Origin: an uncultured Bacilli bacterium
GTDB lineage: Bacteria > Bacillota_I > Bacilli_A > RF39 > UBA660
NCBI GenBank assembly: GCA_947588685.1
Contig: CANPYM010000002.1
Location: 25,964 to 89,963 of the forward strand
Direction of reading: 5' to 3'
Length of the DNA: 64,000 bases
The position numbers and the translations under genes are program-made. Positions 3,368-59,551 of the stretch are shown one piece after another. The notes under the pieces were generated by a model that saw only the letters and a program-made list of their open reading frames with translations, made no database searches and was not told the origin of the DNA. How positions within the stretch are numbered: position 1 is the first letter of the stretch; each line of letters opens with the position of its first letter.

Positions 3368-3492
3368 TTGACAAACCAAGGCTCGTATGTTAAAATGTAT
3401 TACTGTGTAGGACCTCATTCTACAACCGCACAGAACAGGTTTAAAACGTAAAGTACCTTAATGGCGAGTCTTAGATTATAAAGGAGGATATT
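3368..3492 (+). promoter_or_regulatory. promoter (TTGACA-17-TAAAAT) plus structured rplU 5' leader (L21-leader-like)
   Basis: TTGACA at 3368-3373, TAAAAT at 3391-3396. ~90-nt leader with CTGTG...CACAG pairing before RBS AAGGAGG. Confidence 0.4.
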
Positions 3493-3789: not shown

Positions 3790-3794
3790 TTAGT

Positions 3795-4100: not shown

Positions 4101-4114
4101 GGGAGGTGCTCAGG

Positions 4115-4402: not shown

Positions 4403-4427
4403 GACTGATTAATCAGTCTTTTTTTTG
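4403..4427 (+). terminator. rho-independent terminator
   Basis: AGACTGATT-AATCAGTCT hairpin followed by T8. Confidence 0.7.
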
Positions 4428-4442
4428 TAAAAAGAAAAGCTA

Positions 4443-5405: not shown

Positions 5406-5547
5406 ATTTCCTCCTTTCAAGGAATTTATTATATAAGAAGATTTAAAAGATTGGCGAGAGGAAAAAATTATGACATTTTTTTACAATTTACTTGTTTGCC
5501 AAATTAGAATATGTTAATATAATAATGTATAAGAAAGGAGTAAGATA

Positions 5548-26592: not shown

Positions 26593-29436
26593 ATGTATAA
26601 TTTTAGTGTTATTGAAAAGAAATGGCAAAAAAAATGGTTGGATGAAAAGTGTTTTAATGTTAAAGTTGATCCAAGTAAAGAAAAGTTTTATATGCTTGTT
26701 GAGTTTCCTTATCCATCAGGTGTTGGCTTACATGTTGGACACGCTAGAGTATATACGGCATCTGATGTGCAAGCACGTTATCGAAAAGCTTTAGGATATA
26801 ATGTTTTATTCCCAATGGGTTGGGATGCCTTTGGAGCGCCAGCTGAACAATATGCGATTCAAAATCATATTCATCCTAAGGAAGCTGTTAATGAAAATAT
26901 CAAAGTTTTTAAAGGCCAAATGCAATCACTTGGTTTAGCTATTGATTGGTCTAGAGAATTTTCAACTACCGATCCTGAATATTATCGTTTAACGCAATGG
27001 CAATTTTTACAATTTTATAAAGCAGGTCTTGCTTATAAAGCCGAAAAAGAAATTAACTGGTGTCCAAAGTGTAAGACTGGTTTATCTAATGAAGATGCCC
27101 AAGGTGGTGTTTGTGAACGATGTGGTTCGAAGACGACCAAGAAGTTAAAAAATCAATGGGTTTTAAAGATGAGTGCATACGCTGATAAACTTATTGATGG
27201 TTTGGACGATACGGAGTTTTTGGATAAAGTTAAAATAGCGCAAATAAACTGGATTGGTAAAAGTATTGGGGCTTCTATTAACTTTAAATTAAAAGATACC
27301 GATGATTATCTTGAAGTCTTTACAACTAGAGCTGATACTTTATATGGTGTCACCTTTATGGTTGTAAGTCCTGAACACCCTTATCTTGAAAAGTATAAGG
27401 ATAAGATTCACAACTTAAAAGAATTACAAGCTTATCAAGAAGCCGCTCGTCATAAAAGTGATATTGAAAGAACGGATGCAACCCGTGAAAAAACAGGTAT
27501 TTGTATTGATGGCTTGACGGCTATTAATCCTATTAATAATGAAGAAATACCAATTTGGGTAAGTGATTATGTTTTAGCAGGATATGGAACGGGTGCTATA
27601 ATGGCGGTTCCTGCTCACGATGAAAGAGATTATGCTTTCGCTAAGAAGTTTAATATTCCAATCAGACAAGTTATCATTCCTGTTTATGAAGGGGATGACG
27701 CACCACGTCCTGATAAAGAAGAAACAAAACGTGAAGTTGTCGTCTTAATGGTAAAACATCCAACGGAAGATAAATATCTATGTGTTAAAAATTTAAAATT
27801 AGGTTGGAAGAGCCTTCTTATGGGTGGCATTGAAGAGGGTGAAACACCAGAAGAAGCCGCTAAAAGAGAATTAAGAGAAGAATCAGGATATATTAATTTT
27901 GACCATGATTGGACTTTTGACTTTATGTTTAGAGAAAAGTTCTATGCTGCTCATAAAGATGTTAATCGTAATATTACTAACCACATTATTGTTGGACACT
28001 TGTCAACTTTAACGCAAGGTGAGATTAGTGAGGAAGAAAAAAATACCCAAGAAGCATTCTGGGTTAGTGCTGATGAATTAATGGATACCTTAGACTTTAC
28101 AACCCATAAGAAAGTTGTCAGTGACTACTTTAATGGTGAGAATGCCTATGTTGGCGATGGTGAGATGGTTAATTCTGATATCTTAAATGATATTGATAAT
28201 AAAAAAGATAGTATCGACAAAATGATTAACTATCTAGAGAGTAAAGGTATTGGTAAAAAGACGACTAATTATCGTTTACAAGATTGGATTTTCTCACGTC
28301 AACGTTTCTGGGGTGAGCCAATTCCAATGGTTAATTGTCCTAAATGTGGATGGGTACCAGTTAAAGAAGAAGATTTACCGGTCGTTTTACCAGATGTTAG
28401 TGCTTATGAACCAACCGAGACGGGGGAAAGCCCACTTGCTAATATTAAAGAATGGGTTAAGACAACTTGTCCAAAATGTGGTGGCGAAGCCGAAAGAGAA
28501 ACCGACACGATGCCAAACTGGGCTGGTTCTAGTTGGTATTGGTTAAGATATATGGATCCTCATAGCGATAAAATAGCTAGTGATGAAGCTCTAAATTATT
28601 GGGGTAAAGTTGATCTATATGATGGTGGTATGGAACATGCGACAAGACATTTACTATATGCTAGGTTTTGGAACATCTTCTTACACGAACAAGGCTTAGT
28701 TCCTAATAGTGAGCCATTCTTAAAACGTATCAGCCATGGTATGATTTTAGGTGAAGGCGGCGAGAAGATGAGTAAGAGTAAAGGTAATGTCGTTAATCCT
28801 AATGATATGATTAGGGATTATGGAGCCGATGCCTTAAGAACATATGAGATGTTTATTGGTGATTACTCTAAAGATGCGGCTTGGAGTGAGAATGGCTTAA
28901 AGGGCTGTAAAAAGTTCTTAGACCGGATATGGAAATTACAAGATAAATTAAATAATGAAGAAGGATATACGAAAGCCTTAGAAACGATAATTCATAAAAC
29001 AATTAAAAAGGTAACTTTAGATATTGCTAATTTGGATTATAATACAGCCGTATCAGCATTGATGATTTTACTTAATGAAACGGATAAATGTGAGAGTATT
29101 ACCAAAAGTGATTATCGAACTATCTTAGCTCTTTTAAATCCTTTTGCCCCACATATCACGGAAGAATTAAATGAGATATGTGGCCTAGGAGAACCATTCT
29201 ATAATAGTAGTTGGCCTACTTATGATGAAGCTAAGACGAATGATGCTAGTTATGAAATGGTTGTTCAAGTCAATGGTAAAGTAAGAGGTAAGATTGAAGT
29301 TTCAACGGATACAACCGATGAAGAAATGAAGTCTTTAGCGCAAGATATTGATAATGTTAAAGTTCATCTTGAAGGTAAAGAAATTGTTAAGATTATCGTT
29401 GTTCCTAAAAAACTTGTTAATATTGTTGTCAAATAA
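26593..29436 (+). CDS. leuS: leucine--tRNA ligase with ~150-aa Nudix hydrolase domain insertion
   Basis: HIGH-region P.PSG.GLHVGHA, KMSKS. Insertion at ~27675-28135 carries the Nudix box GGIEEGETPEEAAKRELREESGY (27823-27891). Confidence 0.93.
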   Translation: MYNFSVIEKKWQKKWLDEKCFNVKVDPSKEKFYMLVEFPYPSGVGLHVGHARVYTASDVQARYRKALGYNVLFPMGWDAFGAPAEQYAIQNHIHPKEAVNENIKVFKGQMQSLGLAIDWSREFSTTDPEYYRLTQWQFLQFYKAGLAYKAEKEINWCPKCKTGLSNEDAQGGVCERCGSKTTKKLKNQWVLKMSAYADKLIDGLDDTEFLDKVKIAQINWIGKSIGASINFKLKDTDDYLEVFTTRADTLYGVTFMVVSPEHPYLEKYKDKIHNLKELQAYQEAARHKSDIERTDATREKTGICIDGLTAINPINNEEIPIWVSDYVLAGYGTGAIMAVPAHDERDYAFAKKFNIPIRQVIIPVYEGDDAPRPDKEETKREVVVLMVKHPTEDKYLCVKNLKLGWKSLLMGGIEEGETPEEAAKRELREESGYINFDHDWTFDFMFREKFYAAHKDVNRNITNHIIVGHLSTLTQGEISEEEKNTQEAFWVSADELMDTLDFTTHKKVVSDYFNGENAYVGDGEMVNSDILNDIDNKKDSIDKMINYLESKGIGKKTTNYRLQDWIFSRQRFWGEPIPMVNCPKCGWVPVKEEDLPVVLPDVSAYEPTETGESPLANIKEWVKTTCPKCGGEAERETDTMPNWAGSSWYWLRYMDPHSDKIASDEALNYWGKVDLYDGGMEHATRHLLYARFWNIFLHEQGLVPNSEPFLKRISHGMILGEGGEKMSKSKGNVVNPNDMIRDYGADALRTYEMFIGDYSKDAAWSENGLKGCKKFLDRIWKLQDKLNNEEGYTKALETIIHKTIKKVTLDIANLDYNTAVSALMILLNETDKCESITKSDYRTILALLNPFAPHITEELNEICGLGEPFYNSSWPTYDEAKTNDASYEMVVQVNGKVRGKIEVSTDTTDEEMKSLAQDIDNVKVHLEGKEIVKIIVVPKKLVNIVVK

Positions 29437-32112: not shown

Positions 32113-34989
32113 ATGTTTGAAAAGAAAAAAATGAAACATCTTTTCCCACTTATCGTGGCGATGGCTATTTTAGCGCTTCTTTTAATTATAGTCGAAATTT
32201 TTACATCATATGACGGAACAGATACAGAAGATAAATTAGACAATGGTAAAATTAATATTAATGCGTTAGTTATTAATGAAATAATGACGTCTAATAAAGG
32301 AGCTTTAGCTGATAAAGATGGCAATACCTATGATTGGATTGAATTATATAATGGTACAAGTAAGGATATTGATCTTACGGGTTATGGCTTAAGTGATGAA
32401 CAATCTGGTAATACAAAATGGCTTTTTCCTAATGTTACTATCAAAAGTAAAGATTATTTAATTGTATATTTAAGTGGTTCCAATAAAGATGGATTATATG
32501 CTAATTTTGCTTTAGATAAAGCCGGAGGGGAGACCCTTACATTAAAGAAAAAATCTGGTAAAGTAGTTGACTCTGTCAAGACTAAATCGCTTGCTAAAAA
32601 CAATGTTATGGCGCGTAATAGTAGTGGTAAATGGATTGAAACGGCCGATATGACGCCGGGTTTTGCTAATAACGATGAAGGTCGGAAAGCTTTCTTAGAA
32701 AAACGGACCTTAACGAATGATGATCCTCTTAGTATTACAGAGTTTTTACCACGTAATGATGGTAATATCAGTTTTGACGGCCATTTATATAGCTATATAG
32801 AAATTCAAAATACTGGTAAAGAAAGTGTTTCCTTAAAGAATTATTTTGTTTCTAATGATCTTAATATGCCATATCAATATCGACTTCCTGATGTGATGTT
32901 AAAACCTAATGAAACATATCTCATTTATACATCTAATCTCGGCCATGATAATCATGCTAACTTTACCTTAAAAAGTAAAAATGGTGTCGTTATTTTGGCT
33001 CATGGCGCTGACATCATCGAAGAAGTTGAATACACGGATGTTCCTAATGGAAGTGCCTACATAAAAACGTCGGGTGGCGATTTTATGGAAAGTGTCAACA
33101 TTACGCCAGGCTATCCAAACACACCGGAGGGAATGGAAAACTTCACTAATTATGAACGCAAAAATCCAACGGACTTAATCATTAGTGAACTTATGAATGC
33201 CAATACAAAGTATTTAGCTCAAAATGGTGGTGAATACTATGATTGGATTGAATTATATAATAATTCGGGTAAGACGATTAATCTTGCTGATTATGCTCTT
33301 TCAACTGATACCGGTAATAAAAAGATGTATGTTTTGCCAAAGAAAGAATTAAAAAGCGGTGAGTATTACGTTTTAATGGCATCCGGAGATACCGCTTTAA
33401 GTAATTCTAAATATGCGCATGCTAACTTTAAAATATCCGAAAGTGAAAGTATCTTCCTATATAAAGGGAATGACTTAATTGATTCTGTTGCCATATCTAA
33501 TATTCCAAGGGGATATAGTTATGGTAGGAGTAATGTCAAAGGATTTTACTATTATGCGACACCAACGCCAGGTGCGAAGAACAATAATAGTGGCATTTTA
33601 GAAATTGCGTATGAACCTGTTTTTGTTACAACCCCAGGTGTATATAATAACGTTTCTAATGTTTCCGTAACATTAAAAGGGGAAGGGACTATTTATTATA
33701 CTTTAGATGGTTCAACACCAACTACTAAATCTAAGGTGTATAATAGTCCTATTATTTTAAAAAAAACAACCGTTGTTAAAGCTATTTCCTATGCGAGTAA
33801 AAAAAAAGCAAGTGCGGTTACGACCGGATCATATATTATTAATGAAAATCATACGCTTCCGGTTTTATCCGTCAGTTTACCACCAACGTCTTTTAAATCT
33901 GTAAGTTCAAGGACAAGTGCGAGTGGTTATGTCGTTGCGGCCCATGCGGAATTATATGAAAAGGACAAATCTTTTTCTGTTGATTGTGGGTTAAAATTGT
34001 TTGGTGGATCAACAAGATATATGGCTAAGAAAAGCTTTACTTTAAAGTTTTCTAAAAAATATGGCCCATCTACTTTAAATTATAAAGTCTTTGATAACCG
34101 GGATGCGGTTAAGTATGATTCCTTGGTTATTCGAAGTGGTTCCCAAGATAGTACCGGAACAATGATTAGAGATGAACTCGCTACATCCTTGATGAATGAT
34201 TATGGAACGGTTGATGTTCAGGCTTACAAAGGTGTTATTTTATATATCAATGGTGAATATTGGGGCATTTATTTTATTCGGGAGAAAGTTGATGAAGAGT
34301 TTGTCCGCCATCACTATGATGTTCCGGAAGAAGGAACCAATATTGTTAGGATTGATAATCAAGTTAGTGCTGGATCATCAAAAGATTACCGGTCACTCGT
34401 CAACTATGTTAAAAGTCATGATATGAGTGTCGCTAGTAATTATGATTATGTTACAAAAAAATTAGATATCGACAATTTTATTGACTATTGGATTGGCGCT
34501 ATGTATACAACCAATAATGATATTGTCAATACTAGATTTTTTAATAATCCTAACCTTGATGGTGGTAGGATAAAAATGGTCTTTTATGACTTTGACTATG
34601 CCTTCTATAATACGGATCGCAATTATATGCAGTGGATGACAGCTAGTAATGGTCTTTCAGCTTACACTTGGAGTTATGATAATTCACTTCTTCGTAATCT
34701 ACTAAAAAATAAAACATTTAAGAAACGTTTCTTAGAACGAGCATCTTATAATTATAAAAACTTATGGAATAAAAATGTTGTTATGAAAAGGTATAACGAA
34801 CTTATCAATCTAATCAAACCAGAAATAAGTCGTAATCAAAAACGTTGGAATAATACGATGAAAGATTGGGAAAGTGAATGTAAAACCCTTAAAAACTATA
34901 TTAATAACCGGGATACTTATTTTGTTAATCACATTAAAAGTTATTTTGGCTTAAGTAGTAAGGAAGTGAAAGAATACTTTGGAACATAA
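32113..34989 (+). CDS. CotH kinase family protein with two lamin-tail (LTD) domains and chitobiase-C-like Ig domain
   Basis: Signal/TM N-terminus. LTD motifs (INEIMTSN...YDWIELYN) x2. CotH region (YWGIYF...DNFIDYWIGAMYTTNND). Confidence 0.75.
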   Translation: MFEKKKMKHLFPLIVAMAILALLLIIVEIFTSYDGTDTEDKLDNGKININALVINEIMTSNKGALADKDGNTYDWIELYNGTSKDIDLTGYGLSDEQSGNTKWLFPNVTIKSKDYLIVYLSGSNKDGLYANFALDKAGGETLTLKKKSGKVVDSVKTKSLAKNNVMARNSSGKWIETADMTPGFANNDEGRKAFLEKRTLTNDDPLSITEFLPRNDGNISFDGHLYSYIEIQNTGKESVSLKNYFVSNDLNMPYQYRLPDVMLKPNETYLIYTSNLGHDNHANFTLKSKNGVVILAHGADIIEEVEYTDVPNGSAYIKTSGGDFMESVNITPGYPNTPEGMENFTNYERKNPTDLIISELMNANTKYLAQNGGEYYDWIELYNNSGKTINLADYALSTDTGNKKMYVLPKKELKSGEYYVLMASGDTALSNSKYAHANFKISESESIFLYKGNDLIDSVAISNIPRGYSYGRSNVKGFYYYATPTPGAKNNNSGILEIAYEPVFVTTPGVYNNVSNVSVTLKGEGTIYYTLDGSTPTTKSKVYNSPIILKKTTVVKAISYASKKKASAVTTGSYIINENHTLPVLSVSLPPTSFKSVSSRTSASGYVVAAHAELYEKDKSFSVDCGLKLFGGSTRYMAKKSFTLKFSKKYGPSTLNYKVFDNRDAVKYDSLVIRSGSQDSTGTMIRDELATSLMNDYGTVDVQAYKGVILYINGEYWGIYFIREKVDEEFVRHHYDVPEEGTNIVRIDNQVSAGSSKDYRSLVNYVKSHDMSVASNYDYVTKKLDIDNFIDYWIGAMYTTNNDIVNTRFFNNPNLDGGRIKMVFYDFDYAFYNTDRNYMQWMTASNGLSAYTWSYDNSLLRNLLKNKTFKKRFLERASYNYKNLWNKNVVMKRYNELINLIKPEISRNQKRWNNTMKDWESECKTLKNYINNRDTYFVNHIKSYFGLSSKEVKEYFGT

Positions 34990-35674
34990 ACAATATCGTT
35001 ATGAGTTAAAGTTTATCTTAAATAGGAAACAAGCTGAAGTTTTGAAACATCGTCTTTCACTTTTAATGGAAGTTGATGCCAATTCAGTTAATCCTAACCA
35101 TACTTACTTTATTAGAAGCCTATATTTTGATGATTTAGAAGATAGTGCCTACTATGAAAAAGTTGATGGTATCTATGAAAGAAATAAGTACCGTATTCGT
35201 ATCTATAATCTAGATGATTCTTATATTCGGCTTGAACGTAAAGAAAAAACGCGTGATTTAACTTATAAAAAGCAAGCTATTATTTCTAAAGATGCTTGCC
35301 TTAGAATAATCAAAGGAGATTTACCAAATCCTGCTTCCATTGAAAATGAACTAGTTAGAGAGTTTGCTATTAAGCAAAAACTGTCCAATCTTAAGCCTAG
35401 CGTCATTGTTGATTATGAACGTTTAGCTTATACGTATCCTGTTGAGGATGTCCGGGTAACGTTTGATGAAAATATTAAATCGGGACGTTTTAGTGATGAC
35501 TTATTTGATCCTGATTTACTTACTTTTGATGTTTTAGAACCTGATGAAGTTGTTTTAGAAGTCAAATATAATAATTATATTCCTAGCCATTTAGTTAGTG
35601 TTATTACAAGTATTCCATCATTAAGACAGGCTGTTTCGAAGTTTGCTTTATGTCGGGAAAAGAAGGAGGTATAA
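34979..35674 (+). CDS. VTC domain (polyphosphate-polymerase-like) protein
   Basis: MEHKQYRYELKFIL...RSLYFDD; conserved partner of CotH. Confidence 0.65.
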   Translation: MEHKQYRYELKFILNRKQAEVLKHRLSLLMEVDANSVNPNHTYFIRSLYFDDLEDSAYYEKVDGIYERNKYRIRIYNLDDSYIRLERKEKTRDLTYKKQAIISKDACLRIIKGDLPNPASIENELVREFAIKQKLSNLKPSVIVDYERLAYTYPVEDVRVTFDENIKSGRFSDDLFDPDLLTFDVLEPDEVVLEVKYNNYIPSHLVSVITSIPSLRQAVSKFALCREKKEV

Positions 35675-35675
35675 A

Positions 35676-36329
35676 ATGGGCTTTTTAGATTTAATTAAAA
35701 AGAGTGTCGTAGCTGAGTTTAGTAATTCACTATCGACCGTGGATGTATTTTTCTCACTACTTATAGCTTTTTTAGCTGCTATTATCATCATTATTATTTA
35801 TAAGAAAACTTATACGGGGGTTTCTTACACCAAATCATTTGCATTATCAATTGTCTTACTTGCAATGGTAACATCTTTAGTTATCAGAACAATCAATTCT
35901 AATTTAGCGCTTTCTTTAGGTATGGTTGGTGCGTTATCAATCGTTCGTTTTAGAACGGCTGTTAAAGATCCGGTGGATACCATCTTTATGTTCTGGGCTA
36001 TTACCGTTGGTATTATGGCCGGAGCAGGACTTTACCTTATTACCTTAATTGCTACTTTAATTTTAGGTATTTTATATGTTGTTAGTTATACAACGACATT
36101 TAAAGCATCAAAAAAGTATCTTTTAGTTATTAAAGCTACCAAGGATGCCTCTCCAGCTATTATTAAGATAATGAGTAAAAAGAAAAAATGTGTTTTAAAA
36201 ACGGAATCTTATAAAAAGAATAAAGTTGAACTTACTTTTGAATTAGCCTCACGAGGTACAACGGAAGATATAATGAAATTACAAAGTATGGAAGAAATTG
36301 AAAGCCTTCACTTAATAAATATTGATTAA
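35676..36329 (+). CDS. DUF4956 family membrane protein
   Basis: RBS GGAGG + ATG 35676 (MGFLDLIKK). TM-rich. Conserved third member of the CotH–VTC–DUF4956 triad. Confidence 0.55.
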   Translation: MGFLDLIKKSVVAEFSNSLSTVDVFFSLLIAFLAAIIIIIIYKKTYTGVSYTKSFALSIVLLAMVTSLVIRTINSNLALSLGMVGALSIVRFRTAVKDPVDTIFMFWAITVGIMAGAGLYLITLIATLILGILYVVSYTTTFKASKKYLLVIKATKDASPAIIKIMSKKKKCVLKTESYKKNKVELTFELASRGTTEDIMKLQSMEEIESLHLINID

Positions 36330-37001: not shown

Positions 37002-38162
37002 ATGCGAAAGATAATTTTATTTTTAGTATTGATGTTAATAGGAACTAATGTTTATGCTAGTGGGGATACTTTCTATTATGATAGTGAAAAAGTAAGTGAA
37101 ATGTGGATAACGAAAGAAAAGGGTGATAACAAAAGGTCAGCTCATCCTTATAAGTTAAAAAGAAGAGGGGATAATACCTATATTTATTGTTTGGAACCTT
37201 TTGTTCTTCTTAAAAAGGATGCGACAACTTATATTGAAGATGCGGATTTTACTAAATACAATCTAACGCAAGCACAGCTTGATCGTATCAATTTAATCAT
37301 ATATTATGGTTATGGCTACCGCAATCATACTAGTAATATATGGTATGGTGTAACACAATACTTGGTATGGCAAGAAGTTGATAAAGAAGCTGATATTTAT
37401 TTTACAAGTGAAAAAGATGGGCCAAGAAAAAAACTTTATACAAAAGAAATAAATGAGATAGAAGCTTTAATTAGTGAACATAAAAAAGAAGCTAATTTTA
37501 AAGATACCTATCTTTTATCAACTAATCAAACTTTAGATATTGATAGTAATATTACCTTAGATGATTATGACATTACAGCGGATATACCTTATGAAAAAGA
37601 AGGTAATACCTTAAAAATAAGTAATCCTCAAGTGGGGGAATATACTTTTAATTTAGTTAAAAAGAATAATCGTTTTAAGACAGAGTTTCAAATGTTTTAT
37701 AGTAAGAATAGTCAAAATGTTATCGTCCCTGGTAATAGTCCTATCTATAGTAAAGAGTATAGTTTTAAAATTATTGTCAAGGAAGGAGAGTTAGAATTAA
37801 CAAAGAAAAGTACGACGACCAATAAATATTTAAAAGGAGCCGTATATGGGGTGTATCAAGATGGAACTTTAATTACAAAAATTAAAACGGATAAAAAGGG
37901 TAAGGGTTCTACTAAACTACCTTTTGGTACATATATCATTAAGGAATTAGTGGCTCCAGCGGGATACAAATTAGATAATAAAGAATATCAAGTTATTATT
38001 GGCGAGGATAAACTTAAGATAGAACTTAACTTATATGATGAAGAAGATATTTATGAAGTACCCGATACCGGAACTAATTCTATTTTTTATACTCATTTAG
38101 GATTAATTATTTTAGGCTCTTTAGGACTTTTATATGTTAAGAAAAAGTATTACATGTATTAG
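37002..38162 (+). CDS. sortase-anchored surface adhesin with thioester (TED/TQXA-like) domain; sorting signal VPDTG
   Basis: Signal peptide. YIYCLEP (Cys codon 37198-37200) and VTQY. VPDTG at 38059-38073, followed by hydrophobic segment + KKKYYMY. Confidence 0.65.
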   Translation: MRKIILFLVLMLIGTNVYASGDTFYYDSEKVSEMWITKEKGDNKRSAHPYKLKRRGDNTYIYCLEPFVLLKKDATTYIEDADFTKYNLTQAQLDRINLIIYYGYGYRNHTSNIWYGVTQYLVWQEVDKEADIYFTSEKDGPRKKLYTKEINEIEALISEHKKEANFKDTYLLSTNQTLDIDSNITLDDYDITADIPYEKEGNTLKISNPQVGEYTFNLVKKNNRFKTEFQMFYSKNSQNVIVPGNSPIYSKEYSFKIIVKEGELELTKKSTTTNKYLKGAVYGVYQDGTLITKIKTDKKGKGSTKLPFGTYIIKELVAPAGYKLDNKEYQVIIGEDKLKIELNLYDEEDIYEVPDTGTNSIFYTHLGLIILGSLGLLYVKKKYYMY

Positions 38163-38697
38163 TTTGTTATTTATTGGTTATGGGATTACTTTCTTTGGTA
38201 TTGATTATCACGATAAATTAGAAGATGCACACGAAAATGAATTATTAACTGCAAAATATTTTGAACGTAAAGTTAGTTCTAAGCCTAAAGATAATCCCTA
38301 TATTGCCATTTTAGAAATTCCTAAATTAAAATTCAAAAGGGGTTTATATGAAATTAAAGATCCTAAAAGTAAACTAGATAAAAATATTGTTTTTTTAGAT
38401 AAATCGGATATGCCAGATATGCAAAATAGCCGGGTTATTATTGTTGGTCATAGTGGAGCGACGAGTAATTCTTATTTTAAAAATATTCATAAGTTAAAGA
38501 GGAAAGATACAATATATTTATATTACGATAAGATAAAGTACACCTATAAAGTAACTGATCGTTATGACATTATTAAAAATGGAACTCTAGCCTTAGAATC
38601 AAATCACGATAAAAAGACTTTAACGCTTGTTACCTGTAAAGGTAATACTAAACAATTAGTTATTATTGCAACATTAACAAAAGAAGAAACCATTTAA
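38134..38697 (+). CDS. sortase (class B/C-like), dedicated to upstream adhesin
   Basis: N-terminal TM, VIIVGHSG..., catalytic TLVTC motif. Start overlaps the adhesin stop. Confidence 0.8.
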   Translation: MLRKSITCISLLFIGYGITFFGIDYHDKLEDAHENELLTAKYFERKVSSKPKDNPYIAILEIPKLKFKRGLYEIKDPKSKLDKNIVFLDKSDMPDMQNSRVIIVGHSGATSNSYFKNIHKLKRKDTIYLYYDKIKYTYKVTDRYDIIKNGTLALESNHDKKTLTLVTCKGNTKQLVIIATLTKEETI

Positions 38698-40386: not shown

Positions 40387-40534
40387 TCAATTCGCTCCTT
40401 TCTTTAAGTTTAAATCAACTATAACATTATACCTTTTTTTTATTCTTTTGTCTATACACAAAAAGTGTAAAGGAAACTTACTGCTTCATTGACTATTATT
40501 TAGGGGCGTGTTAGAATGTTTCTAGGATAGGAGT

Positions 40535-40873
40535 ATGGCTATGGAACTAAGAGATGAAGTATTAAGTTATGATCCTGTAATGCGTATTGCTTTAGCTTTT
40601 TATGACTTTGTTCGTAACAATAAAGATTGGCATAATCGTCTTCAAAATGTCGTAGCTAATTATAATAAAAATAGTAGTGATTATGATTTCGAATACGATC
40701 GCAAATTATATAGTTTTTTCTATCAACACTTGGATGATAAAAATGTGCGGTGCTGCGTTAGAGAGTATAATACTTTCTATGATTTAGCTAAACGTTGTAG
40801 CTATATTCTTTTTGATTATAACTTAAATAATGGAAGTATTACGAAGGTCTATCGGTATGGAGAAGAGAAATAA
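40535..40873 (+). CDS. hypothetical protein
   Basis: 112-aa ORF followed by a terminator. Confidence 0.4.
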   Translation: MAMELRDEVLSYDPVMRIALAFYDFVRNNKDWHNRLQNVVANYNKNSSDYDFEYDRKLYSFFYQHLDDKNVRCCVREYNTFYDLAKRCSYILFDYNLNNGSITKVYRYGEEK

Positions 40874-40953: not shown

Positions 40954-41925
40954 ATGGGATTTTTTGGAAAGTTTAAAAATCTCTTTACTTCCAAGGAAGA
41001 GCAGCAAGAGGTTGAAGTTTACGATAAAGGTTTAGAGAAAAGCCGTAAAGAGTTTGTTTCTAAAATAACCTTACTTAATACCCGTTATAAAAAAGTTAGT
41101 AATGAGTATTTTGAAGAATTAGAAGAAATACTTATTATGGCCGATATTGGTGTCAATACGGTTATGGAGTTTATTGATAAATTAAAAAAACGGGTTAAGC
41201 ATGAAAATATTGAAGATGTCGATGATTTAAAAGAAATTATCGTTGATGAGATGTTTATCATCTATGTTGATAATGCCATTATGGTAAATAAGATTCAGTA
41301 TGCTGAAGAAGGACCGACTGTTATCCTTTTTGTAGGTGTTAATGGCGTGGGCAAAACGACAACCATTGGTAAAATGGCAGCAAAGCTTAAAAGTGAAGGG
41401 AAAAGTGTTTTATTAGTAGCTGGTGATACCTTTAGAGCTGGCGCTGTTGAACAACTATGTGAATGGGGCGAAAAAACGTCTTGTCCTGTTGTCTATAAAG
41501 AAAATGCGGATCCTGCCAGTGTTATGTATGATGGCGTCGATAAAGCCTTAAAAGAGAATTATGATGTTGTATTAGTTGATACCGCTGGCCGTTTACAAAA
41601 TAAGACTAATCTTATGAATGAATTAGATAAAATTAATCGTGTTATTGGTAAATTAATTCCGGGTGCGCCTCATGAGACCTTATTAGTCATCGATGCGACG
41701 ACCGGTCAAAATGGTATTAGTCAAGCTAAAGAGTTTCAAAAAATTACCAATATAACGGGTATTGTTTTAACTAAATTAGATGGAACAGCTAAAGGTGGTA
41801 TTGTCTTAGCCATTAAAGAGGAAGTTGGCATACCTGTTAAATATGTTGGTTTAGGTGAGACAGCTAAAGATTTACAAGTCTTTGATATTGAAAAATATAT
41901 ATATGGATTATTTAAAGATATGTGA
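40954..41925 (+). CDS. ftsY: signal recognition particle receptor FtsY
   Basis: ILFVGVNGVGKTTTIGK, DTAGR, LTKLDGTAKGG. Confidence 0.95.
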   Translation: MGFFGKFKNLFTSKEEQQEVEVYDKGLEKSRKEFVSKITLLNTRYKKVSNEYFEELEEILIMADIGVNTVMEFIDKLKKRVKHENIEDVDDLKEIIVDEMFIIYVDNAIMVNKIQYAEEGPTVILFVGVNGVGKTTTIGKMAAKLKSEGKSVLLVAGDTFRAGAVEQLCEWGEKTSCPVVYKENADPASVMYDGVDKALKENYDVVLVDTAGRLQNKTNLMNELDKINRVIGKLIPGAPHETLLVIDATTGQNGISQAKEFQKITNITGIVLTKLDGTAKGGIVLAIKEEVGIPVKYVGLGETAKDLQVFDIEKYIYGLFKDM

Positions 41926-41933
41926 GGTAAAAA

Positions 41934-42215
41934 ATGCATAATGTTGAAGTAATTGAAATAAAATCTTTTTCTTTTAAAAATATTAGTTTAAAAGTTCAAT
42001 TATTTTTATTAGTTGTCTTAATCGGTTGTTTTATCGCTTATTTCTTTGTTGATCCTGACATTATGACACTAATTATATATGGCGTTTTAGCGCTTATGAT
42101 GTTAGTAATGGCTTATAATAATAAAGTCTATTATAAAAGAAAATATTTGGGCGTTATTTATATCATTTTAAGTATTACACTTATTGTCAATTTGGTGGTT
42201 GAACTAATATGGTAG
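41934..42215 (+). CDS. small two-TM membrane protein
   Basis: 93 aa, hydrophobic, overlaps the ylxM start. Confidence 0.4.
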   Translation: MHNVEVIEIKSFSFKNISLKVQLFLLVVLIGCFIAYFFVDPDIMTLIIYGVLALMMLVMAYNNKVYYKRKYLGVIYIILSITLIVNLVVELIW

Positions 42216-42496
42216 AGGTACGTCTCGGTATTCTTTTTGACTATTATGGTGATTTATTAACCGAGCGTCAGCAAGCATTCTTTAAAGATTATTACTTTGA
42301 TAATTTAACACTTCAAGAAATTGCTGATAACAATGGTATTAGTAGAAATGCTGTTCATAAAACGCTCGGTGTGATTAGTCAAAAGTTAGAATATTATGAA
42401 AAAACTTTGGCTTTAATGAAGAAAGCCGAAAGAATTAGAGAACTCACGCAAGATTTGAGTGCGGATAAAAAAAGAGAACTCGAAGATTTAATATAG
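42209..42496 (+). CDS. ylxM: YlxM/UPF0122 family putative DNA-binding protein
   Basis: ILFDYYGDLLTERQQ...LQEIAD..GISRNAVH; classic ftsY–ylxM–ffh neighbour. Confidence 0.75.
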   Translation: MVEVRLGILFDYYGDLLTERQQAFFKDYYFDNLTLQEIADNNGISRNAVHKTLGVISQKLEYYEKTLALMKKAERIRELTQDLSADKKRELEDLI

Positions 42497-42515
42497 ATAA
42501 GAAGGGTGGATAGCT

Positions 42516-44273
42516 ATGTTTGGAAAGATTGTATATATTAGTGATAATATTGCGCATGTTGAAGTTCCAAAAACAGATGAAGTTGTCGTTAACTTGATGA
42601 ATAGACATGTTGTTTTTGAGGATGAAGATAAAAAGATACTAGGTGAAGTTGAAGATATTTCTCCCGAAGTTATGAAAATTAGATTTTTAGGTGAACTTAC
42701 TAAAGATAGTTTTATTGGTGGTGTTTTAAGAAAGCCTAATTTAACGGCTAAAACACGACTTATCAATGAGGAAGAGTTAAAAATCATTATGGGTGATCCC
42801 GGTGAAGGGTCATTCGTTTTAGGGGTTAGTCCTCTATATGATGAGATGCCAATTAACATTAATATTAATGAAGTTTGTAGTAACCATTTAGCTATTTTTG
42901 GTAATACTGGTAGTGGTAAATCATATGGTGTTGCTAGATTTATTCAAAGCTTATTCTATGATCCAAAGTTTGTCCCACTACGATCTAATTTTATGATTTT
43001 TGATGCTTATGGTGAGTATCACAATGCATTTAGAAATTTAAGTCAAGTTAATCCTAATTATAACTTTAAGTTTTATACGACCAATAAGTCTCAATTAAAA
43101 GAGGGGGGCGAACTTTTACGTATTCCTCTTTGGTTATTAGGTGTTGATGATTATGCTTTACTTCTTAATGCTGAAAAGCACTCACAATTACCAATTATTG
43201 AAAGAATGATTAAGCTTGTCCGCGTTTTTGCCACGGAAGGAGATATTAGTACTAGATATAAGAACCATTTGATTGCCAAAGCTATTATGGATATTATGTA
43301 TACGAATCAAACGTCAGCTAGTAAAAGAAACGATATCTTCTCTATCTTAGCTAGTTGTTCAACGCAACAATTTAATCTTGAAGCTCCGGTTCAAGGTATT
43401 GGATACGTTCGAAAGTTCCGTGATTGTTTCTTAATTGATACGGCTGGGCAATTTACCGAAAGTGTTTTAGTAACGCAATATATTACATCATTCATTGATG
43501 AGGAATTAGAGAAATATGAGCCAACAGCTAATCATTTTTTTACGCTAGATGATGTTGAAAAAGCCTTACAATTTACTTTGATTTCTGAAGGTTTACTTCG
43601 AAATGAAAAATTATATAATGAAGCTATTACTTTAAAAGTTCGCCTTCATGCTTTAGCAGTTGGAGAAAATAAAGAGTTCTTTAACTATCCTCAATATATA
43701 ACAATGGAAAATTATATAGCTTCTTTAGTTACTTATAATAATAAAAAAGCACAAATTGTTAACTTTAACTTAGAGGATGCGGATGACCGTTTGTCTAAAA
43801 CAATCGTTAAGATTTATGCTAAATTGTTCTTTGATTTTACTAAACGTTTAAATGAAAGAGCATCTATCCCATTCCATCTAGTTTTAGAGGAATCTCACCG
43901 TTATGTTCAAAATGATAACGATAACTTCTTACTTGGTTATAACATTTTTGAACGTATCGCTAAAGAGGGCCGTAAGTTTGGTATGTTGCTTTTCTTAATT
44001 TCTCAGCGTCCCGTTGAATTATCTGAAACAGTTATCTCTCAGTGTAGTAACTTCTTAATCTTTAAGATGACGCACCCAAGAGATCTTGAATATATGGAAA
44101 AGATGTTACCAAATATGAGTGCTGAAATTATGGAAAAACAAAAGAGTTTACAGCCAGGTACTTGTGTCGCTTTTGGTCGAGCATTTAGTATTCCAATGAT
44201 TGTTAAAATGCCACTTCCAAATCCAGAACCATATAGTACAAATGCCGATATCGTCGGCCGTTGGACACAATAA
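42516..44273 (+). CDS. HerA/FtsK-superfamily P-loop ATPase (DUF87-like) with N-terminal HAS-barrel-like domain
   Basis: Walker A GNTGSGKS, Walker B LVLEESH, ISQRP sensor. Confidence 0.7.
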   Translation: MFGKIVYISDNIAHVEVPKTDEVVVNLMNRHVVFEDEDKKILGEVEDISPEVMKIRFLGELTKDSFIGGVLRKPNLTAKTRLINEEELKIIMGDPGEGSFVLGVSPLYDEMPINININEVCSNHLAIFGNTGSGKSYGVARFIQSLFYDPKFVPLRSNFMIFDAYGEYHNAFRNLSQVNPNYNFKFYTTNKSQLKEGGELLRIPLWLLGVDDYALLLNAEKHSQLPIIERMIKLVRVFATEGDISTRYKNHLIAKAIMDIMYTNQTSASKRNDIFSILASCSTQQFNLEAPVQGIGYVRKFRDCFLIDTAGQFTESVLVTQYITSFIDEELEKYEPTANHFFTLDDVEKALQFTLISEGLLRNEKLYNEAITLKVRLHALAVGENKEFFNYPQYITMENYIASLVTYNNKKAQIVNFNLEDADDRLSKTIVKIYAKLFFDFTKRLNERASIPFHLVLEESHRYVQNDNDNFLLGYNIFERIAKEGRKFGMLLFLISQRPVELSETVISQCSNFLIFKMTHPRDLEYMEKMLPNMSAEIMEKQKSLQPGTCVAFGRAFSIPMIVKMPLPNPEPYSTNADIVGRWTQ

Positions 44274-44289
44274 AAAGAGGAGAGCTAGT

Positions 44290-44718
44290 ATGAATGAAAA
44301 TGAACAAGTCGTAAGTAATGATACAAATTTATCCGGTGTAGCTAGTCAAGAGGTAACTTATAATTCTAATGAAATTAATGCTAATATGAGCTATCAACAG
44401 CCTCAAGCCTATATGCCTGTAAATAATAATCAAATGTCCGTACCAGGGTATAATCAACCAATGGATCAACAATATCCTGCTACTCCTGTTAAGAAGTTTA
44501 ACAAAAAATTACTTCTTTTATGGCTTATCCCTGTTGGTTGCTTTCTTGGCGGTTTTGCTTGCCTTATGATTAATACTATTGCTCGTGCTTCCACTGAATA
44601 TTATGAGCCAGCCTTTATTAATAATGTGTTATCTATAATGCATCTTCTTTTATGGTTTTTAACCTTACCAAGCTTGGTGGTTGTAACTATTGTTTTTGCT
44701 ATTAAAGTAAATAAATAG
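44290..44718 (+). CDS. membrane protein with Q/N-rich N-terminal region and two C-terminal TM helices
   Basis: RBS AGAGGAG. Immediately follows the HerA-like ATPase. Confidence 0.5.
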   Translation: MNENEQVVSNDTNLSGVASQEVTYNSNEINANMSYQQPQAYMPVNNNQMSVPGYNQPMDQQYPATPVKKFNKKLLLLWLIPVGCFLGGFACLMINTIARASTEYYEPAFINNVLSIMHLLLWFLTLPSLVVVTIVFAIKVNK

Positions 44719-44770
44719 AAAGTGTCAAAAAACACTTTCTTTTTTTATAAACACTAACATATATTAAACT

Positions 44771-45367
44771 ATGAATAATTTAATTGCCCATCGTTCGCTT
44801 GACAAGCATCAGTATCCCGAAAATAGCCTTTTAGCTAGTCTTTTTTGCCTTAAACAAAAATATATTTTAGGCATAGAAATTGATGTTCGGCTGACTAAAG
44901 ATAAAAAGTTTATTATGTATCATAATTATTTATATAATTTAAAGAGAATTACCAATTTAAAATATAAAGAATTAGCTAATATTGATAAGCTAGAGGATTT
45001 GTTAAAGCAGATTAAATCTCCAAAAATAATTTTACTTGATCTTAAATGTGAAGATATCAATGTTGATGATTATTTAAAAAGACTTTTACGCCTTTTAAAA
45101 AAGTATCCTCTAAATTATTATTTATGTTCTTTTAATTATGATTTAACTAAAAAACTAGCTAGGTTGACAAATTATCCGGTTGGTTTATTTATTAGTGATT
45201 TAATCAATAAAAAGAAGAATTATAATCATTTATCTTTCTTAGCTTTATCTCGTCATAGTTATTTTGATATTCCTTTTGATACGAAAATGGTTTGGACAGT
45301 TAATGATACCAAAGCAATTTATAAATATCAATATATTATAACAGACAAGCCTTATTTATTATCGTAG
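44771..45367 (+). CDS. glycerophosphodiester phosphodiesterase family protein (GDPD-like)
   Basis: IAHRS.....PENS...F......GIEIDVRLTKD.....YHN motif. Confidence 0.55.
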   Translation: MNNLIAHRSLDKHQYPENSLLASLFCLKQKYILGIEIDVRLTKDKKFIMYHNYLYNLKRITNLKYKELANIDKLEDLLKQIKSPKIILLDLKCEDINVDDYLKRLLRLLKKYPLNYYLCSFNYDLTKKLARLTNYPVGLFISDLINKKKNYNHLSFLALSRHSYFDIPFDTKMVWTVNDTKAIYKYQYIITDKPYLLS

Positions 45368-45837
45368 TAAGATGCTTTTTCGGTTATAATCATTGCTTTA
45401 GAATCAATTAATTTAATAAGTCTAACTAGTGAGAATTTCTTTTTTCTAGGAATCATAATAAGTAAGACTTTCTTTTTATCATTTACTCCCTCGCCATCAA
45501 TTGTTGTAACTTGATAATTTAAAGACCGAAGACCATCAATTAATTTGTTGTCATTCTCGGTAATACAAGTAATCATATTCTCACCCAAAGCTATTTTTTC
45601 TTCAATAAGACAACCTAAATAAGAACCAGTAAAACAGCCGAGGGCAAAAGCGACGATTTTAAATGGCTCGCTTGTAAAATTACGTAATAGGGCCACTGTT
45701 GCATAAATCCAAATAACAGCAATAAAGATATTTAAAATCGCGCCTAATAATTTCTTTTGATTAGCGATAACAATAATTCTAATCGTCGTTAAAATGTTTT
45801 CTAAAGTTTTGGCTCCAAAAATCAATATATATTGCAC
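45352..45837 (-). CDS. hypothetical membrane protein (YitT/DUF2179-like C-terminus)
   Basis: 161-aa ORF with one TM. Confidence 0.35.
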   Translation of the reverse strand: MQYILIFGAKTLENILTTIRIIVIANQKKLLGAILNIFIAVIWIYATVALLRNFTSEPFKIVAFALGCFTGSYLGCLIEEKIALGENMITCITENDNKLIDGLRSLNYQVTTIDGEGVNDKKKVLLIMIPRKKKFSLVRLIKLIDSKAMIITEKASYYDNK

Positions 45838-45934: not shown

Positions 45935-47233
45935 ATGTTTGAAAGTTTAGGCGATCGATTACAATCAGCTGTTAATAAAATTAAAGGCTATGGTAAAATT
46001 ACCGAGGATAATATCAGTGACGTAACAAGAGAAATCCGCCTTGCTTTACTAGAAGCCGATGTTAACTATAAAGTTGTTAAAGAGTTTATTAATAATGTTA
46101 AAGAAAAAGCCTTAGGGGAAGAGGTAGCAAAATCTTTAAAACCCGGTGAGATGTTTGTTAAAATTTTAAAAGATGAACTTGTTGATCTTTTAGGTGGCGA
46201 TGATGCACCTCTTTATATGAGTGGTCATCCATCTGTTTTAATACTTGTCGGTTTACAAGGTAGTGGTAAAACGACAACGATTGGTAAACTAGCTCTTCGC
46301 TTACGAAAAAAGGAAAAAAAGCGTCCTTTATTAGTTGCCTGTGATGTTTATCGTCCAGCGGCTATTGATCAGTTAAAAACATTAGGACGAGAACTTAATA
46401 TTGAGGTTTATTCCGAAGGTAAGGGTAATCCTGTTGAAATAAGTAAAAATGCCATTAAGTACGCTAAAGAAAATAATTATGATTATGTTTTAATTGATAC
46501 GGCTGGTCGTTTACATATCGATGAAGAGTTGATGGACGAATTAAACAACATTAACTCCGAAGTAAATCCCGATGAGGTTCTACTAGTTATCGATAGTATG
46601 ACCGGTCAAGATGCGATTAATGTTATTGAGGGCTTCAATAATAAGTTACCTCTTACGGGCGCTATTTTAACGAAGTTAGATGGCGACACTAGAGGTGGTG
46701 CGGCTTTATCCATTCGTCATCTTACTAATGTTCCAATTAAGTTTATCGGTATTAGTGAAAAATTAGATGGCTTAGATGAGTTCCATCCTGACCGGATGGC
46801 TTCTAGGATTCTTGGTATGGGCGATCTTATGACGATGATTGAAAAAGCGGAAGATGTCATTGATCAAGATGAAGCAATGAAAACGGCTAAAAGAATGCAG
46901 GAAGGGAAATTTGACCTTGAAGACTTTTTAAGTGCCTTAAAGCAAGTTAAAAAGTTAGGACCTTTAGAAAATTTAATTAAAATGATGCCGGGCATGCCAA
47001 AAGAAGCTCGTAATTTAAAAGTTAATCCTAAAGATATGGCCCATATTGAAGCGATTGTTTTATCGATGACCCCATATGAACGAAGACATCCAGAATGCCT
47101 TAAGAATAGTCGTAAAATCCGCATATCTAAAGGATGCAATCGTCCTGTCGAAGAGATTAATCGTCTTCTTAAACAATTTGAAGAGATGAAAAAAATGATG
47201 AAAATGATGAAAAATGGGAAAATGCCATTTTAA
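45935..47233 (+). CDS. ffh: signal recognition particle protein Ffh
   Basis: LVGLQGSGKTTTIGKLA, DTAGR, Met-rich M-domain tail. Confidence 0.95.
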   Translation: MFESLGDRLQSAVNKIKGYGKITEDNISDVTREIRLALLEADVNYKVVKEFINNVKEKALGEEVAKSLKPGEMFVKILKDELVDLLGGDDAPLYMSGHPSVLILVGLQGSGKTTTIGKLALRLRKKEKKRPLLVACDVYRPAAIDQLKTLGRELNIEVYSEGKGNPVEISKNAIKYAKENNYDYVLIDTAGRLHIDEELMDELNNINSEVNPDEVLLVIDSMTGQDAINVIEGFNNKLPLTGAILTKLDGDTRGGAALSIRHLTNVPIKFIGISEKLDGLDEFHPDRMASRILGMGDLMTMIEKAEDVIDQDEAMKTAKRMQEGKFDLEDFLSALKQVKKLGPLENLIKMMPGMPKEARNLKVNPKDMAHIEAIVLSMTPYERRHPECLKNSRKIRISKGCNRPVEEINRLLKQFEEMKKMMKMMKNGKMPF

Positions 47234-58384: not shown

Positions 58385-59551
58385 ATGAATAACGAGGAAT
58401 ATGAAAAAGAGAAAGAAAAAATGCGCCGCGAAATTTTAGATGAGATGGAAAAGGATCAAATGCGCAAAGAGATTCTTGATGAATTAAACACTAAAGGCAG
58501 AGAAAATCCTAATAGTGGTAGTGAGACTATTCAATCCTTTGGTCAAGCAAAGAAAAAGTCAACAGTAAGTTTTAGTAAAGAAGCAAAGAGTGAGGAATCA
58601 GAAGAAAAAATTGATGATGATAACGTTCCAGCTTTAGAGGCTATCAGTATAACGCCAAAGCAATCTATGTCAAAAGTTAGCAAAGTTATGATTGGTGTAT
58701 CTTTGGTGTTGGTTATTGTGGCCATTGCTTGTTTCCCTCTTATTTATGATAAAGCTAATGATTTCTTTGCTAAATTAGGAAATAGTGATTATATTCCTAT
58801 ACCAGATGAACCAGAAAAACAATATGACAAAATAACAATGGATAGTGAAGTTGTTAAAAATTTAAAATATCCAGTTATGCATAACGATCCAGCAACCAAG
58901 GATACATATTTTAGTAAAGATAAAATATCAACTAGTGATTTTACGAATAATGATTTACTATATAGATCTTTACTAGATGTTTTAGAAGGAAATATGGCAC
59001 CATATAGTGGTAAATATAGTGGTAAATATTGTGGATCTGGAGCGACCAAAGTTTCTTTAGATGGCGATTATCTTGAACTTCGTTTAACGGGACTTTTTAG
59101 CCGTAATGTTAATTATACTTTAACTGATTTTACTGTTCCAATGAATAGGTTAGATACAAAATATGTTGGCAATTGGAAATATGATGCTAAAAATAACCGC
59201 TTTATCTATTATGGTTGTGGAACAAAAACAAAAACAAATTTAAATTACTATGATATTAGTGTTCCTTATGAAGTATCAACTTCTGAAAAGAATGTTAATC
59301 TTTATGTTGATAGTTATGTAGCTTTTGCTCTTGTTAATACTAAAAGCAAAGAATATATTTTATATAAAGATGCTGCCTATACGGAAGAATTATCACGTGG
59401 TACTTTAAAGACTAATGATGCTTCAGAAGAATTAAAGACAGTGGTTAAAGATATGGATAAAGCTAGCATTAATAAATATAAGTATACATATACAATTGAG
59501 GGTTGCCCATATTTAGATTATTGCTTTGCCAGTGGAGAGTGGGTTAAATAA
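58385..59551 (+). CDS. hypothetical single-pass membrane protein with extracellular domain
   Basis: Acidic coiled N-terminus, TM (VMIGVSLVLVIVAIACF), Cys-containing ectodomain. Confidence 0.45.
   Translation: MNNEEYEKEKEKMRREILDEMEKDQMRKEILDELNTKGRENPNSGSETIQSFGQAKKKSTVSFSKEAKSEESEEKIDDDNVPALEAISITPKQSMSKVSKVMIGVSLVLVIVAIACFPLIYDKANDFFAKLGNSDYIPIPDEPEKQYDKITMDSEVVKNLKYPVMHNDPATKDTYFSKDKISTSDFTNNDLLYRSLLDVLEGNMAPYSGKYSGKYCGSGATKVSLDGDYLELRLTGLFSRNVNYTLTDFTVPMNRLDTKYVGNWKYDAKNNRFIYYGCGTKTKTNLNYYDISVPYEVSTSEKNVNLYVDSYVAFALVNTKSKEYILYKDAAYTEELSRGTLKTNDASEELKTVVKDMDKASINKYKYTYTIEGCPYLDYCFASGEWVK

Follow-up and report, generated by a model that had tools for sequence, protein, structure and literature searches.

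A Stand-Alone HerA-Family ATPase Encoded beside ylxM in Uncultured Bacilli: Very Probably a Core Gene Rather than a Defence Module

Introduction

The genes ftsY, ylxM and ffh of the signal recognition particle (SRP) system are normally contiguous in Firmicutes. In a stretch of 64,000 nucleotides (nt) from an uncultured Bacilli bacterium (lineage RF39, UBA660; GenBank assembly GCA_947588685.1, contig CANPYM010000002.1, positions 25,964 to 89,963 of the forward strand), which as a whole is called the window here, ylxM is followed instead by a gene for a P-loop ATPase of 585 amino acids (aa), a HerA-family protein simply called HerA below. An earlier note on this DNA, made from the letters alone, regarded the ATPase and the small membrane protein on each side of it as a three-gene module inserted into the SRP locus, and likened it to the anti-phage or abortive-infection systems and translocation machines in which HerA-like ATPases recur. 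The open reading frame (ORF) positions given there are all borne out by ORF calls, the coordinates agree that the ATPase gene parts ylxM from ffh, and small membrane ORFs are indeed present on both sides of it, so it is interesting to know whether HerA came with a defence system or belongs to the cell's own equipment. As discussed below, herA is very probably a core housekeeping gene and not a defence module.

HerA as a Vertically Inherited Gene

For the comparison of loci, one genome per species was scanned and the 80 best HerA relatives were kept; the labels L001 to L083 denote 83 related loci, and counts for the gap between ftsY and ylxM refer to 84 loci. A HerA relative is encoded in at least 587 species-representative genomes. 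The 80 best relatives are 64–94% identical to the window's protein over essentially the full length, and their carriers are uncultured metagenome-assembled genomes (MAGs) of low guanine + cytosine content (GC) labelled Bacilli, "Tenericutes", Mollicutes or Erysipelotrichaceae. The gene ylxM stands immediately 5' of herA in 80 of the 83 loci, and ftsY lies upstream in essentially all of those with enough flank. A synteny comparison, which the earlier note had proposed as a check, thus finds the ATPase kept at its ylxM-adjacent position. That note had weighed its own reading against universal presence at this position together with a known housekeeping role; the position is shared across related lineages, while a known role of this kind is not in evidence.

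Across these loci, the identity of HerA to the window's protein tracks that of FtsY (r = 0.67), Ffh (r = 0.88) and RNase J (r = 0.90), running 5–8 points under these three and 20 points above YlxM. In addition, the ratios of nonsynonymous to synonymous substitution (dN/dS) against five close relatives are 0.016–0.065 for HerA, 0.016–0.124 for FtsY and 0.005–0.078 for Ffh. HerA is vertically inherited, slowly evolving and under very strong purifying selection like FtsY and Ffh. An ancestor of the lineage would have gained herA between ylxM and ffh, and the gene would then have been kept as the last conserved member of the unit.

Several MAGs among the carriers (those of L006, L030, L037, L048, L071, L072, L075 and L076) are titled Roseburia sp., Muribaculaceae or Sphaerochaetaceae. 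FtsY of most of these is about 73–86% identical to that of the window, and that of L037 only 56%. The odd titles look like binning or labelling errors and not horizontal transfer.

Family, Fold and Motifs of HerA

The herA gene (42516–44273, + strand) has its own ribosome-binding site (RBS) and encodes a stand-alone ATPase, assigned by family, fold and synteny. The protein matches Pfam DUF87, the HerA central domain (6e-23, 82.5 bits against a cut-off of 23.2), and the HerA model of PADLOC over its full length (5.8e-105), and its significant sequence matches in the Protein Data Bank (PDB) are all HerAs or the related TdpA. A monomer model was made with AlphaFold2 (AF2), whose mean predicted local distance difference test (pLDDT) score is 66 overall and 80–89 over the beta-rich N-terminus (aa 5–82), with a helical region at about aa 210–405. 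With this model, Foldseek gave alignments of about 600 columns with HerA chains, the lowest E being 2.7e-24, and the top matches are all HerAs, those of DUF4297–HerA and SIR2–HerA first and archaeal HerA–NurA later. The plan predicted from the model is the one that defines membership in the family, that is, an N-terminal HAS barrel and a RecA-like core with a helical insert.

The motifs agree with this assignment. In an alignment of 10 HerA sequences of the clade, invariant residues include G129, N130, G132, S133, G134, K135 and S136 of the Walker A motif GNTGSGKS (aa 129–136; 42900–42923, +) and L457, E458, E459 and H461 of LVLEESH, the Walker B motif with the catalytic acidic pair (aa 455–461; 43878–43898, +). 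The residues of FERIAKEGRKFG, EGRK included, and of SQRP (aa 496–499), which together span 43947–44012 (+), are likewise invariant; these motifs belong to the HerA core, occur in defence-type HerAs too, and align to IERIAKEGRKYG and SQRP in the solved HerAs 9c1m and 8xau. The HAS barrel is strongly conserved in the same alignment, and no hydrophobic or transmembrane (TM) segment was found in the protein. Because Walker A, Walker B, FERIAKEGRKFG and SQRP are invariant, HerA looks catalytically competent. The 585-aa protein is a genuine full-length HerA-family ATPase of the FtsK–HerA superfamily, and the earlier note had been right about the HerA/FtsK type of the P-loop ATPase, its HAS-barrel-like N-terminus and its three signature motifs.

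Membership in the family is, however, not membership in a named subfamily. The NCBIfam equivalogs of anti-phage HerA score 162.1 bits against a cut-off of 850 and 157.4 against 800, about five-fold short, and those of repair HerA 119.2 bits against 800 (HerA_Thermprot) and 100.6 against 970 (helicase_HerA). As all of these cut-offs are missed by far, HerA falls outside every named HerA subfamily.

The Unit Containing herA and the Small Membrane Proteins

The gene ftsY for the SRP receptor (40954–41925, +; Pfam SRP54 2.2e-77, plus SRP54_N) precedes a gene named tm93 here (41934–42215, +), an ORF for a 93-aa small membrane protein whose start, preceded by the RBS GAGG, is 8 nt past the end of ftsY and whose last 7 nt are shared with ylxM. 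The ylxM gene (42209–42496, +) encodes the UPF0122 helix-turn-helix protein known as an SRP accessory factor; its product reaches the YlxM equivalog cut-off of NCBIfam NF045758 (86.8 bits against 80) and matches Pfam UPF0122 (3.1e-22, 79.2 bits against a cut-off of 22.7). Behind herA, and in this strain behind an insertion described below, stands a hairpin like an intrinsic terminator (44717–44747, +) with a 9-bp stem AGAAAGTGT/ACACTTTCT and the run TTTTTTT. On the grounds of the RBSs, the 7-nt overlap, the short gaps and the terminator, ftsY–tm93–ylxM–herA is predicted to be a single transcription unit ending at the hairpin. On the other side, a promoter-like site (40489–40517, +; TTGACT-17-TAGAAT with a TG extension, 10 of 12 matches, a consensus match only) adjoins the 5' side of a 112-aa ORF (40535–40873, +), which itself precedes ftsY, belongs to no Pfam or NCBIfam family, occurs in close relatives only and was detected by tblastn in 10 of the 83 loci. 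GC ranges from about 0.24 to 0.39 along the stretch, and the herA gene shows no discrete GC step.

The gene for the first of the two small membrane proteins, tm93, is real and specific to the lineage. In 64 of the 84 loci the space between ftsY and ylxM holds an ORF of 60 aa or more, the conserved loop motif MAYNN-x-YKRKY-T of the protein being present in 54 of these, and the dN/dS of tm93 is 0.08–0.34. The earlier note had placed a protein with two TM helices ahead of ylxM in an overlapping frame, and its position and the overlap stand, but the hydrophobic segments number three. Neither a curated Pfam or NCBIfam family nor a solved relative was found for tm93; DUF6442, matched below threshold in 7 of 24 members, is the sole recurring family, and UPF0154, the family of YneF, was matched by none of the 24 at E ≤ 1. 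In 19 of the 84 loci tm93 is absent and ftsY abuts ylxM. HerA thus occurs without tm93, so tm93 is no obligate partner of HerA, and by its position it is more plausibly tied to the SRP genes for FtsY and YlxM. YneF, a small membrane protein of B. subtilis, was described in a 2026 study as an SRP accessory factor that binds FtsY, SecY and YlxM, and tm93 could be an SRP accessory factor analogous to it.

The second small membrane protein has a different history. The 444-nt strain-specific insertion (44274–44717, +) carries an RBS and a single Q/N-rich ORF, which begins with the ATG at 44290, ends at 44718 and encodes a protein with two hydrophobic segments in which Q or N makes up 30% of the first 70 residues. 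The description in the earlier note of a Q/N-rich protein with two TM helices holds, and its length is 142 aa, not 143. In an alignment with relatives, the insertion lies exactly between the herA stop and the terminator hairpin: in the relatives whose HerA is 99% and 94% identical, the herA stop is followed almost directly by the terminator or by the gene for a GDPD-like protein, and in those at 94% the same hairpin is found directly 3' of the stop. The ORF is accordingly absent from the 99% relative and from the 94% relatives; moreover, tblastn matched it in none of the 83 loci, and a search of 5.8 billion proteins returned nothing but the protein itself. The insertion could be traced to no DNA source, and its GC at third codon positions (GC3) is host-like (0.225). 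This small membrane gene may have been born or captured recently. The Q/N-rich protein was rejected as a partner of HerA, since it is an ORFan on a 444-nt insert, absent from all related loci, and the co-occurrence with the ATPase that the earlier note wished to see checked is 0 of 83.

The Slot between herA and ffh

Past the terminator there follow the gene for the short GDPD-like protein (44771–45367, +; Pfam GDPD 3.5e-9, N-terminal part only), a gene for a DUF5698/DUF2179 membrane protein (45352–45837, −) that is convergent with it, and ffh, the SRP54 gene (45935–47233, +; Pfam SRP54, SRP_SPB and SRP54_N). The first two were correctly located between the ATPase gene and ffh by the earlier note. 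The GDPD-like gene was detected in 11 of the 83 loci and stands beside herA only in the closest relatives, being away from it in L031, L162 and L171, and the DUF5698/DUF2179 gene accompanies the GDPD-like gene and not herA. The GDPD-like gene, lying past the terminator, is no part of the herA unit. A hidden SIR2-like effector was considered for its product on account of a weak match to the PADLOC model Aga_SIR2 (E = 3.9e-4, 17.9 bits); this idea was rejected, since the Pfam family is GDPD, the gene is past the terminator and its adjacency is restricted to close relatives.

In other genomes ffh is found directly 3' of herA in about 10 loci (e.g., L020, L054, L058, L074, L080 and L091) and at most 8 kb downstream in about 30. 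The slot 3' of herA is highly variable, holding ffh, GDPD, TM proteins of 135–145 aa, PBP5-like carboxypeptidases, LDH, acetate kinase or pilin-like proteins, which suggests that the ancestral order was ylxM–herA–ffh and that other genes were inserted between herA and ffh afterwards. The 135–145-aa proteins have one N-terminal TM helix and a conserved stretch like 'LIHLTFDN..NHILFSDIK', and are encoded immediately 3' of herA in 13 loci (L039, L045, L046, L051, L052, L060, L062, L063, L065, L070, L071, L075 and L081), where the start of the gene often coincides in part with the herA stop or directly adjoins it; the member of L065, the sole one scanned, has no Pfam family. This protein could be a HerA partner specific to a sub-clade. 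A link to competence or pili was also considered from pilin-like ORFs by herA and comK in one locus, and was dropped as the enrichment is negligible (1.9 against 1.1 motifs per 100 kb, in 10 loci).

The arrangement of the unit raises the alternative that a HerA ring is coupled to the SRP and acts with FtsY, YlxM and tm93 in co-translational targeting of membrane proteins or in envelope biogenesis, in which case it might be a translocase or remodeller of polypeptides or RNA and not a DNA pump. Predicted co-transcription and close spacing with ftsY–tm93–ylxM across at least 80 species argue for this, as do the loci in which herA stands directly between ylxM and ffh and the membrane ORF that often follows it, and in B. 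subtilis both YlxM and YneF serve the SRP as accessory factors. Protein-secretion ATPases such as EssC, VirB4 and VirD4 also belong to the FtsK–HerA superfamily. However, HerA lacks a membrane segment and does without tm93 in the loci mentioned above, all characterised HerAs act on DNA, and the orthologues at 39–49% identity adjoin sepF–divIVA, yqeH, dnaA or rmuC and no SRP gene, so the SRP-coupled alternative is considered unlikely.

Tests of Mobility and Defence

A mobile-element origin of HerA was rejected because none of its plasmid or phage relatives is more than about 30% identical to it. The best plasmid relatives, about 30% identical, are SIR2–HerA pairs in which SIR2 overlaps the herA start, and among phage proteins no meaningful matches were found. 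The patchy distribution on islands and plasmids that marks the SIR2–HerA system is not seen for the window's HerA, as judged from synteny, co-divergence and dN/dS. The effectors known from such pairs were looked for as well: tblastn with a plasmid SIR2 against the window and the 83 loci gave no match with E under 0.3, and DUF4297 gave no Pfam or PADLOC match in the neighbouring ORFs or in the called genes of the annotated related loci. Defence models of PADLOC run on the HerA neighbours gave nothing beyond the weak Aga_SIR2 match.

According to the defence explanation, be it anti-phage defence or abortive infection, invading DNA is sensed or translocated by HerA, and the part of effector falls to a small membrane protein or to the GDPD-like protein. 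Among solved structures and mobile relatives alike, the nearest are in fact the immune motors SIR2–HerA and DUF4297–HerA, the match to the PADLOC HerA model is strong, in this strain a membrane ORF follows herA, and the GDPD-like protein has the Aga_SIR2 match already mentioned. On the contrary, a gene conserved in at least 587 species genomes with fixed synteny, co-diverging with FtsY, Ffh and RNase J and with a dN/dS equal to that of the SRP genes, does not look like a defence gene; its plasmid and phage relatives never exceed about 30% identity, SIR2 and DUF4297 were not found, and the anti-phage cut-offs are missed five-fold. Furthermore, of the candidate effectors the Q/N ORFan is absent even from the relative with a 99% identical HerA, and the GDPD-like gene lies beyond the terminator in close relatives only. 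The three-gene module of the earlier note falls with these results, its ATPase position being kept in the lineage, one of its membrane proteins an ORFan, the other dispensable for HerA and no effector domain present, and a defence function of HerA at this locus is very improbable.

Deeper Orthologues and Their Neighbourhoods

An exhaustive search of 1.84 billion representatives gave 212 proteins at E ≤ 1e-30, among which the full-length ones are 58, 49, 47, 44, 43, 41, 40, 39 and 35% identical. In a neighbour-joining (NJ) tree without support values, the deeper HerAs fall together with the window's clade, and the sister of this group is a clade that includes the plasmid SIR2-linked HerA; a member of the sister clade, P0134, is on a short contig with neighbours that have no family. 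The 58% orthologue keeps the SRP setting in the order RNase J–MgtC–ftsY–91aa–ylxM–HerA–ffh. At 44% the order is PP2C–HerA–sepF–divIVA–(ileS), with SepF after HerA in 27 loci, and PP2C–HerA–sepF–divIVA is kept down to about 56% identity inside that sub-clade. Other settings are yqeG–yqeH–HerA (13–14 loci, plus the 49% representative), rpmH–rnpA–yidC–jag / HerA–dnaA–dnaN–recF–gyrB (the 41% orthologue) and a place alone beside an LtaS-like gene (the 39% orthologue). None of these deeper neighbourhoods contains SIR2, DUF4297 or NurA. In the window, an ORF for 388 aa without a Pfam family (58385–59551, +) comes directly after yqeG–yqeH, the slot of herA in the yqeG–yqeH–HerA sub-clade.

Some of the orthologues are longer (829–943 aa), and fused domains were considered for them; the tails proved to be of low complexity, rich in S, N, T, P and Q, with no Pfam domain. 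Such tails, of 80–360 aa, are present on P0121, P0122, P0124, P0125 and P0128. That of P0121 contains 'EHNPALDFG' three times, and P0122 and P0128 end in a similar '…FI(E/D)NM' peptide. P0128 also has degenerate motifs, GNDGFGKS for GNTGSGKS and LLIDNAH in place of the acidic pair, and may be catalytically inactive.

Proposed Function of HerA

HerA and FtsK are ring-shaped translocases of double-stranded DNA (dsDNA), for which domain roles and basic pore residues have been described (PMC9960219). By analogy with the family, six HerA subunits would assemble into a ring and hydrolyse ATP at the Walker A/B site of every subunit interface, and dsDNA would be pumped through the central pore of the HAS barrel and RecA core. 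With no effector, no mobility and neighbours that come from growth, division and replication operons, the most likely substrate is the chromosome of the cell itself and not phage DNA; HerA would act on it while the cell grows and divides, in segregation, clearance or recombinational repair. On balance, then, the reading taken as a whole, a stand-alone housekeeping motor that translocates dsDNA on its own chromosome, is the somewhat favoured one, and the chromosome-motor role specifically is a serious possibility that falls a little short of an even chance.

Several points weigh against this reading. Its steps concerning the DNA substrate and chromosome maintenance are drawn from family knowledge and gene neighbourhood, and public sources name the protein 'Predicted ATPase' or 'hypothetical protein' with no role assigned. 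The neighbourhoods vary by sub-clade between SRP, division, ribosome-biogenesis GTPase and oriC, so none of them pins the pathway. In addition, immune HerAs are the nearest relatives by sequence as well as by structure, which makes a defence ancestry or a residual defence role conceivable; the AF2 model, with its mean pLDDT of 66, is a moderate one, and the NJ tree lacks support values.

A specific sub-case of the DNA-motor reading is end resection of the NurA–HerA type, in which HerA together with an unlinked nuclease, either NurA or a PD-(D/E)xK enzyme like RmuC, would process double-strand breaks. Archaea and Deinococcus provide the classical case of HerA in a housekeeping role, paired with NurA. 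In known complexes the nuclease docks on the HAS barrel, and this barrel shows strong conservation in the present HerA; one orthologue, moreover, is encoded 44 nt downstream of rmuC. This linkage is confined to a single species, represented by L097 and L098, and the idea of RmuC as the usual nuclease partner was rejected. Neither NurA nor another nuclease turned up in the window, in about a dozen Pfam-annotated loci or among the recurrent neighbour clusters and reference-protein scans of the other loci, a negative that does not extend to the rest of the genome, which was not searched, while known NurA–HerA pairs are operonic. As the repair-HerA equivalogs are also reached at 100–119 bits only against cut-offs of 800–970, end resection is an improbable role for HerA.

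To return to the housekeeping motor, a bolder form of it holds that the stand-alone HerA clade is an essential-like housekeeping part of a large, mostly uncultured lineage of gut Bacilli and the closest relative of the SIR2-linked immune HerAs; it might be a chromosome or division motor analogous to FtsK, or might work in connection with the SRP operon. This form is put forward tentatively and is rather doubtful; if true, immune HerA motors and a core cellular motor would be derived one from the other, in either direction.

Other Features of the Window

The rest of the 64-kb window is ordinary core chromosome with genes for Fpg, NrdDG, Fmt, Mur ligases, MraY and pyruvate kinase, and for LeuRS, RNase J, a P-type ATPase, PBP5, YqeG/YqeH and UvrA. 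The leucyl-tRNA synthetase (26593–29436, +; 947 aa) has a NUDIX domain (PF00293, 1.5e-13, residues 381–510) just after the editing domain, an insertion unusual for LeuRS. At the start of the window, five consecutive ORFs of 130–229 aa without a Pfam family are followed by a minus-strand tyrosine integrase gene (4443–5420), and this region (268–5420) may be the edge of an integrated element. A large CotH-kinase/LTD protein and then VTC-domain and DUF4956 genes occupy 32113–36329, and a SpaA-type pilin and sortase pair (37002–38697) lies immediately downstream of this group.

Comparison with Known Systems

Bacterial HerA has so far been treated almost solely as an immune motor, in SIR2–HerA and DUF4297–HerA, or as a partner of NurA. 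In open-access text, nothing was found that links HerA to ylxM, the SRP or sepF, nor any stand-alone bacterial HerA clade described for Mollicutes or Firmicutes, and an undescribed housekeeping use of HerA in gut Bacilli with reduced genomes is indicated. In practice, matches of defence finders to HerA models in these lineages would be false positives for immunity.

Among the small membrane proteins of Firmicutes and Tenericutes, YneF is functionally tied to FtsY, SecY and YlxM, and tm93 is encoded between ftsY and ylxM; the two show no sequence relationship, however, and tm93, in which the hydrophobic segments number three, is lacking from 19 of the 84 loci.

FtsK and SpoIIIE belong to the same superfamily of ring dsDNA pumps. 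A deeper HerA clade is linked to the division genes sepF–divIVA, and the long low-complexity tails of some orthologues are linker-like. However, HerA has no N-terminal membrane anchor and no match to Pfam Ftsk_gamma, and its FtsK_SpoIIIE match covers only aa 112–153, 42 residues around the P-loop. FtsK has no HAS barrel, unlike HerA.

The NurA–HerA system of archaea, Deinococcus and Thermus shares with the window's HerA the domain plan of HAS barrel, RecA core and helix bundle, and its HerA hexamer is a housekeeping dsDNA translocase, as is predicted here. Unlike that system, no NurA is linked in any locus examined, the repair equivalog cut-offs are not reached, and these HerAs are more distant than the defence ones (4d2i 3e-31 and 9x1l 4e-22 against 9c1m 7e-41).

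The closest likeness in sequence and fold is to SIR2–HerA (including 'Nezha') and DUF4297–HerA, which have the same full-length HerA architecture, give the best PDB matches (9c1m, 8xau, 8ziq, 8wiv/8wld and 8j4u) and have the motifs ERIAKEGRK-G, SQRP and the C-terminal PNPEP-S…W in common with the window's HerA. The latter differs from them in that it is about 30% identical to the nearest SIR2-linked HerAs, falls below the anti-phage NCBIfam cut-offs, has ylxM in its upstream slot and no SIR2 or DUF4297 adjacent, and is chromosomal, lineage-wide and syntenic, whereas defence HerAs are on plasmids and islands. The HerA motor family itself is known, and what is new is a probable housekeeping HerA clade without an effector; it provides a natural comparison for immune HerAs that were either recruited from cellular machinery or domesticated into it.

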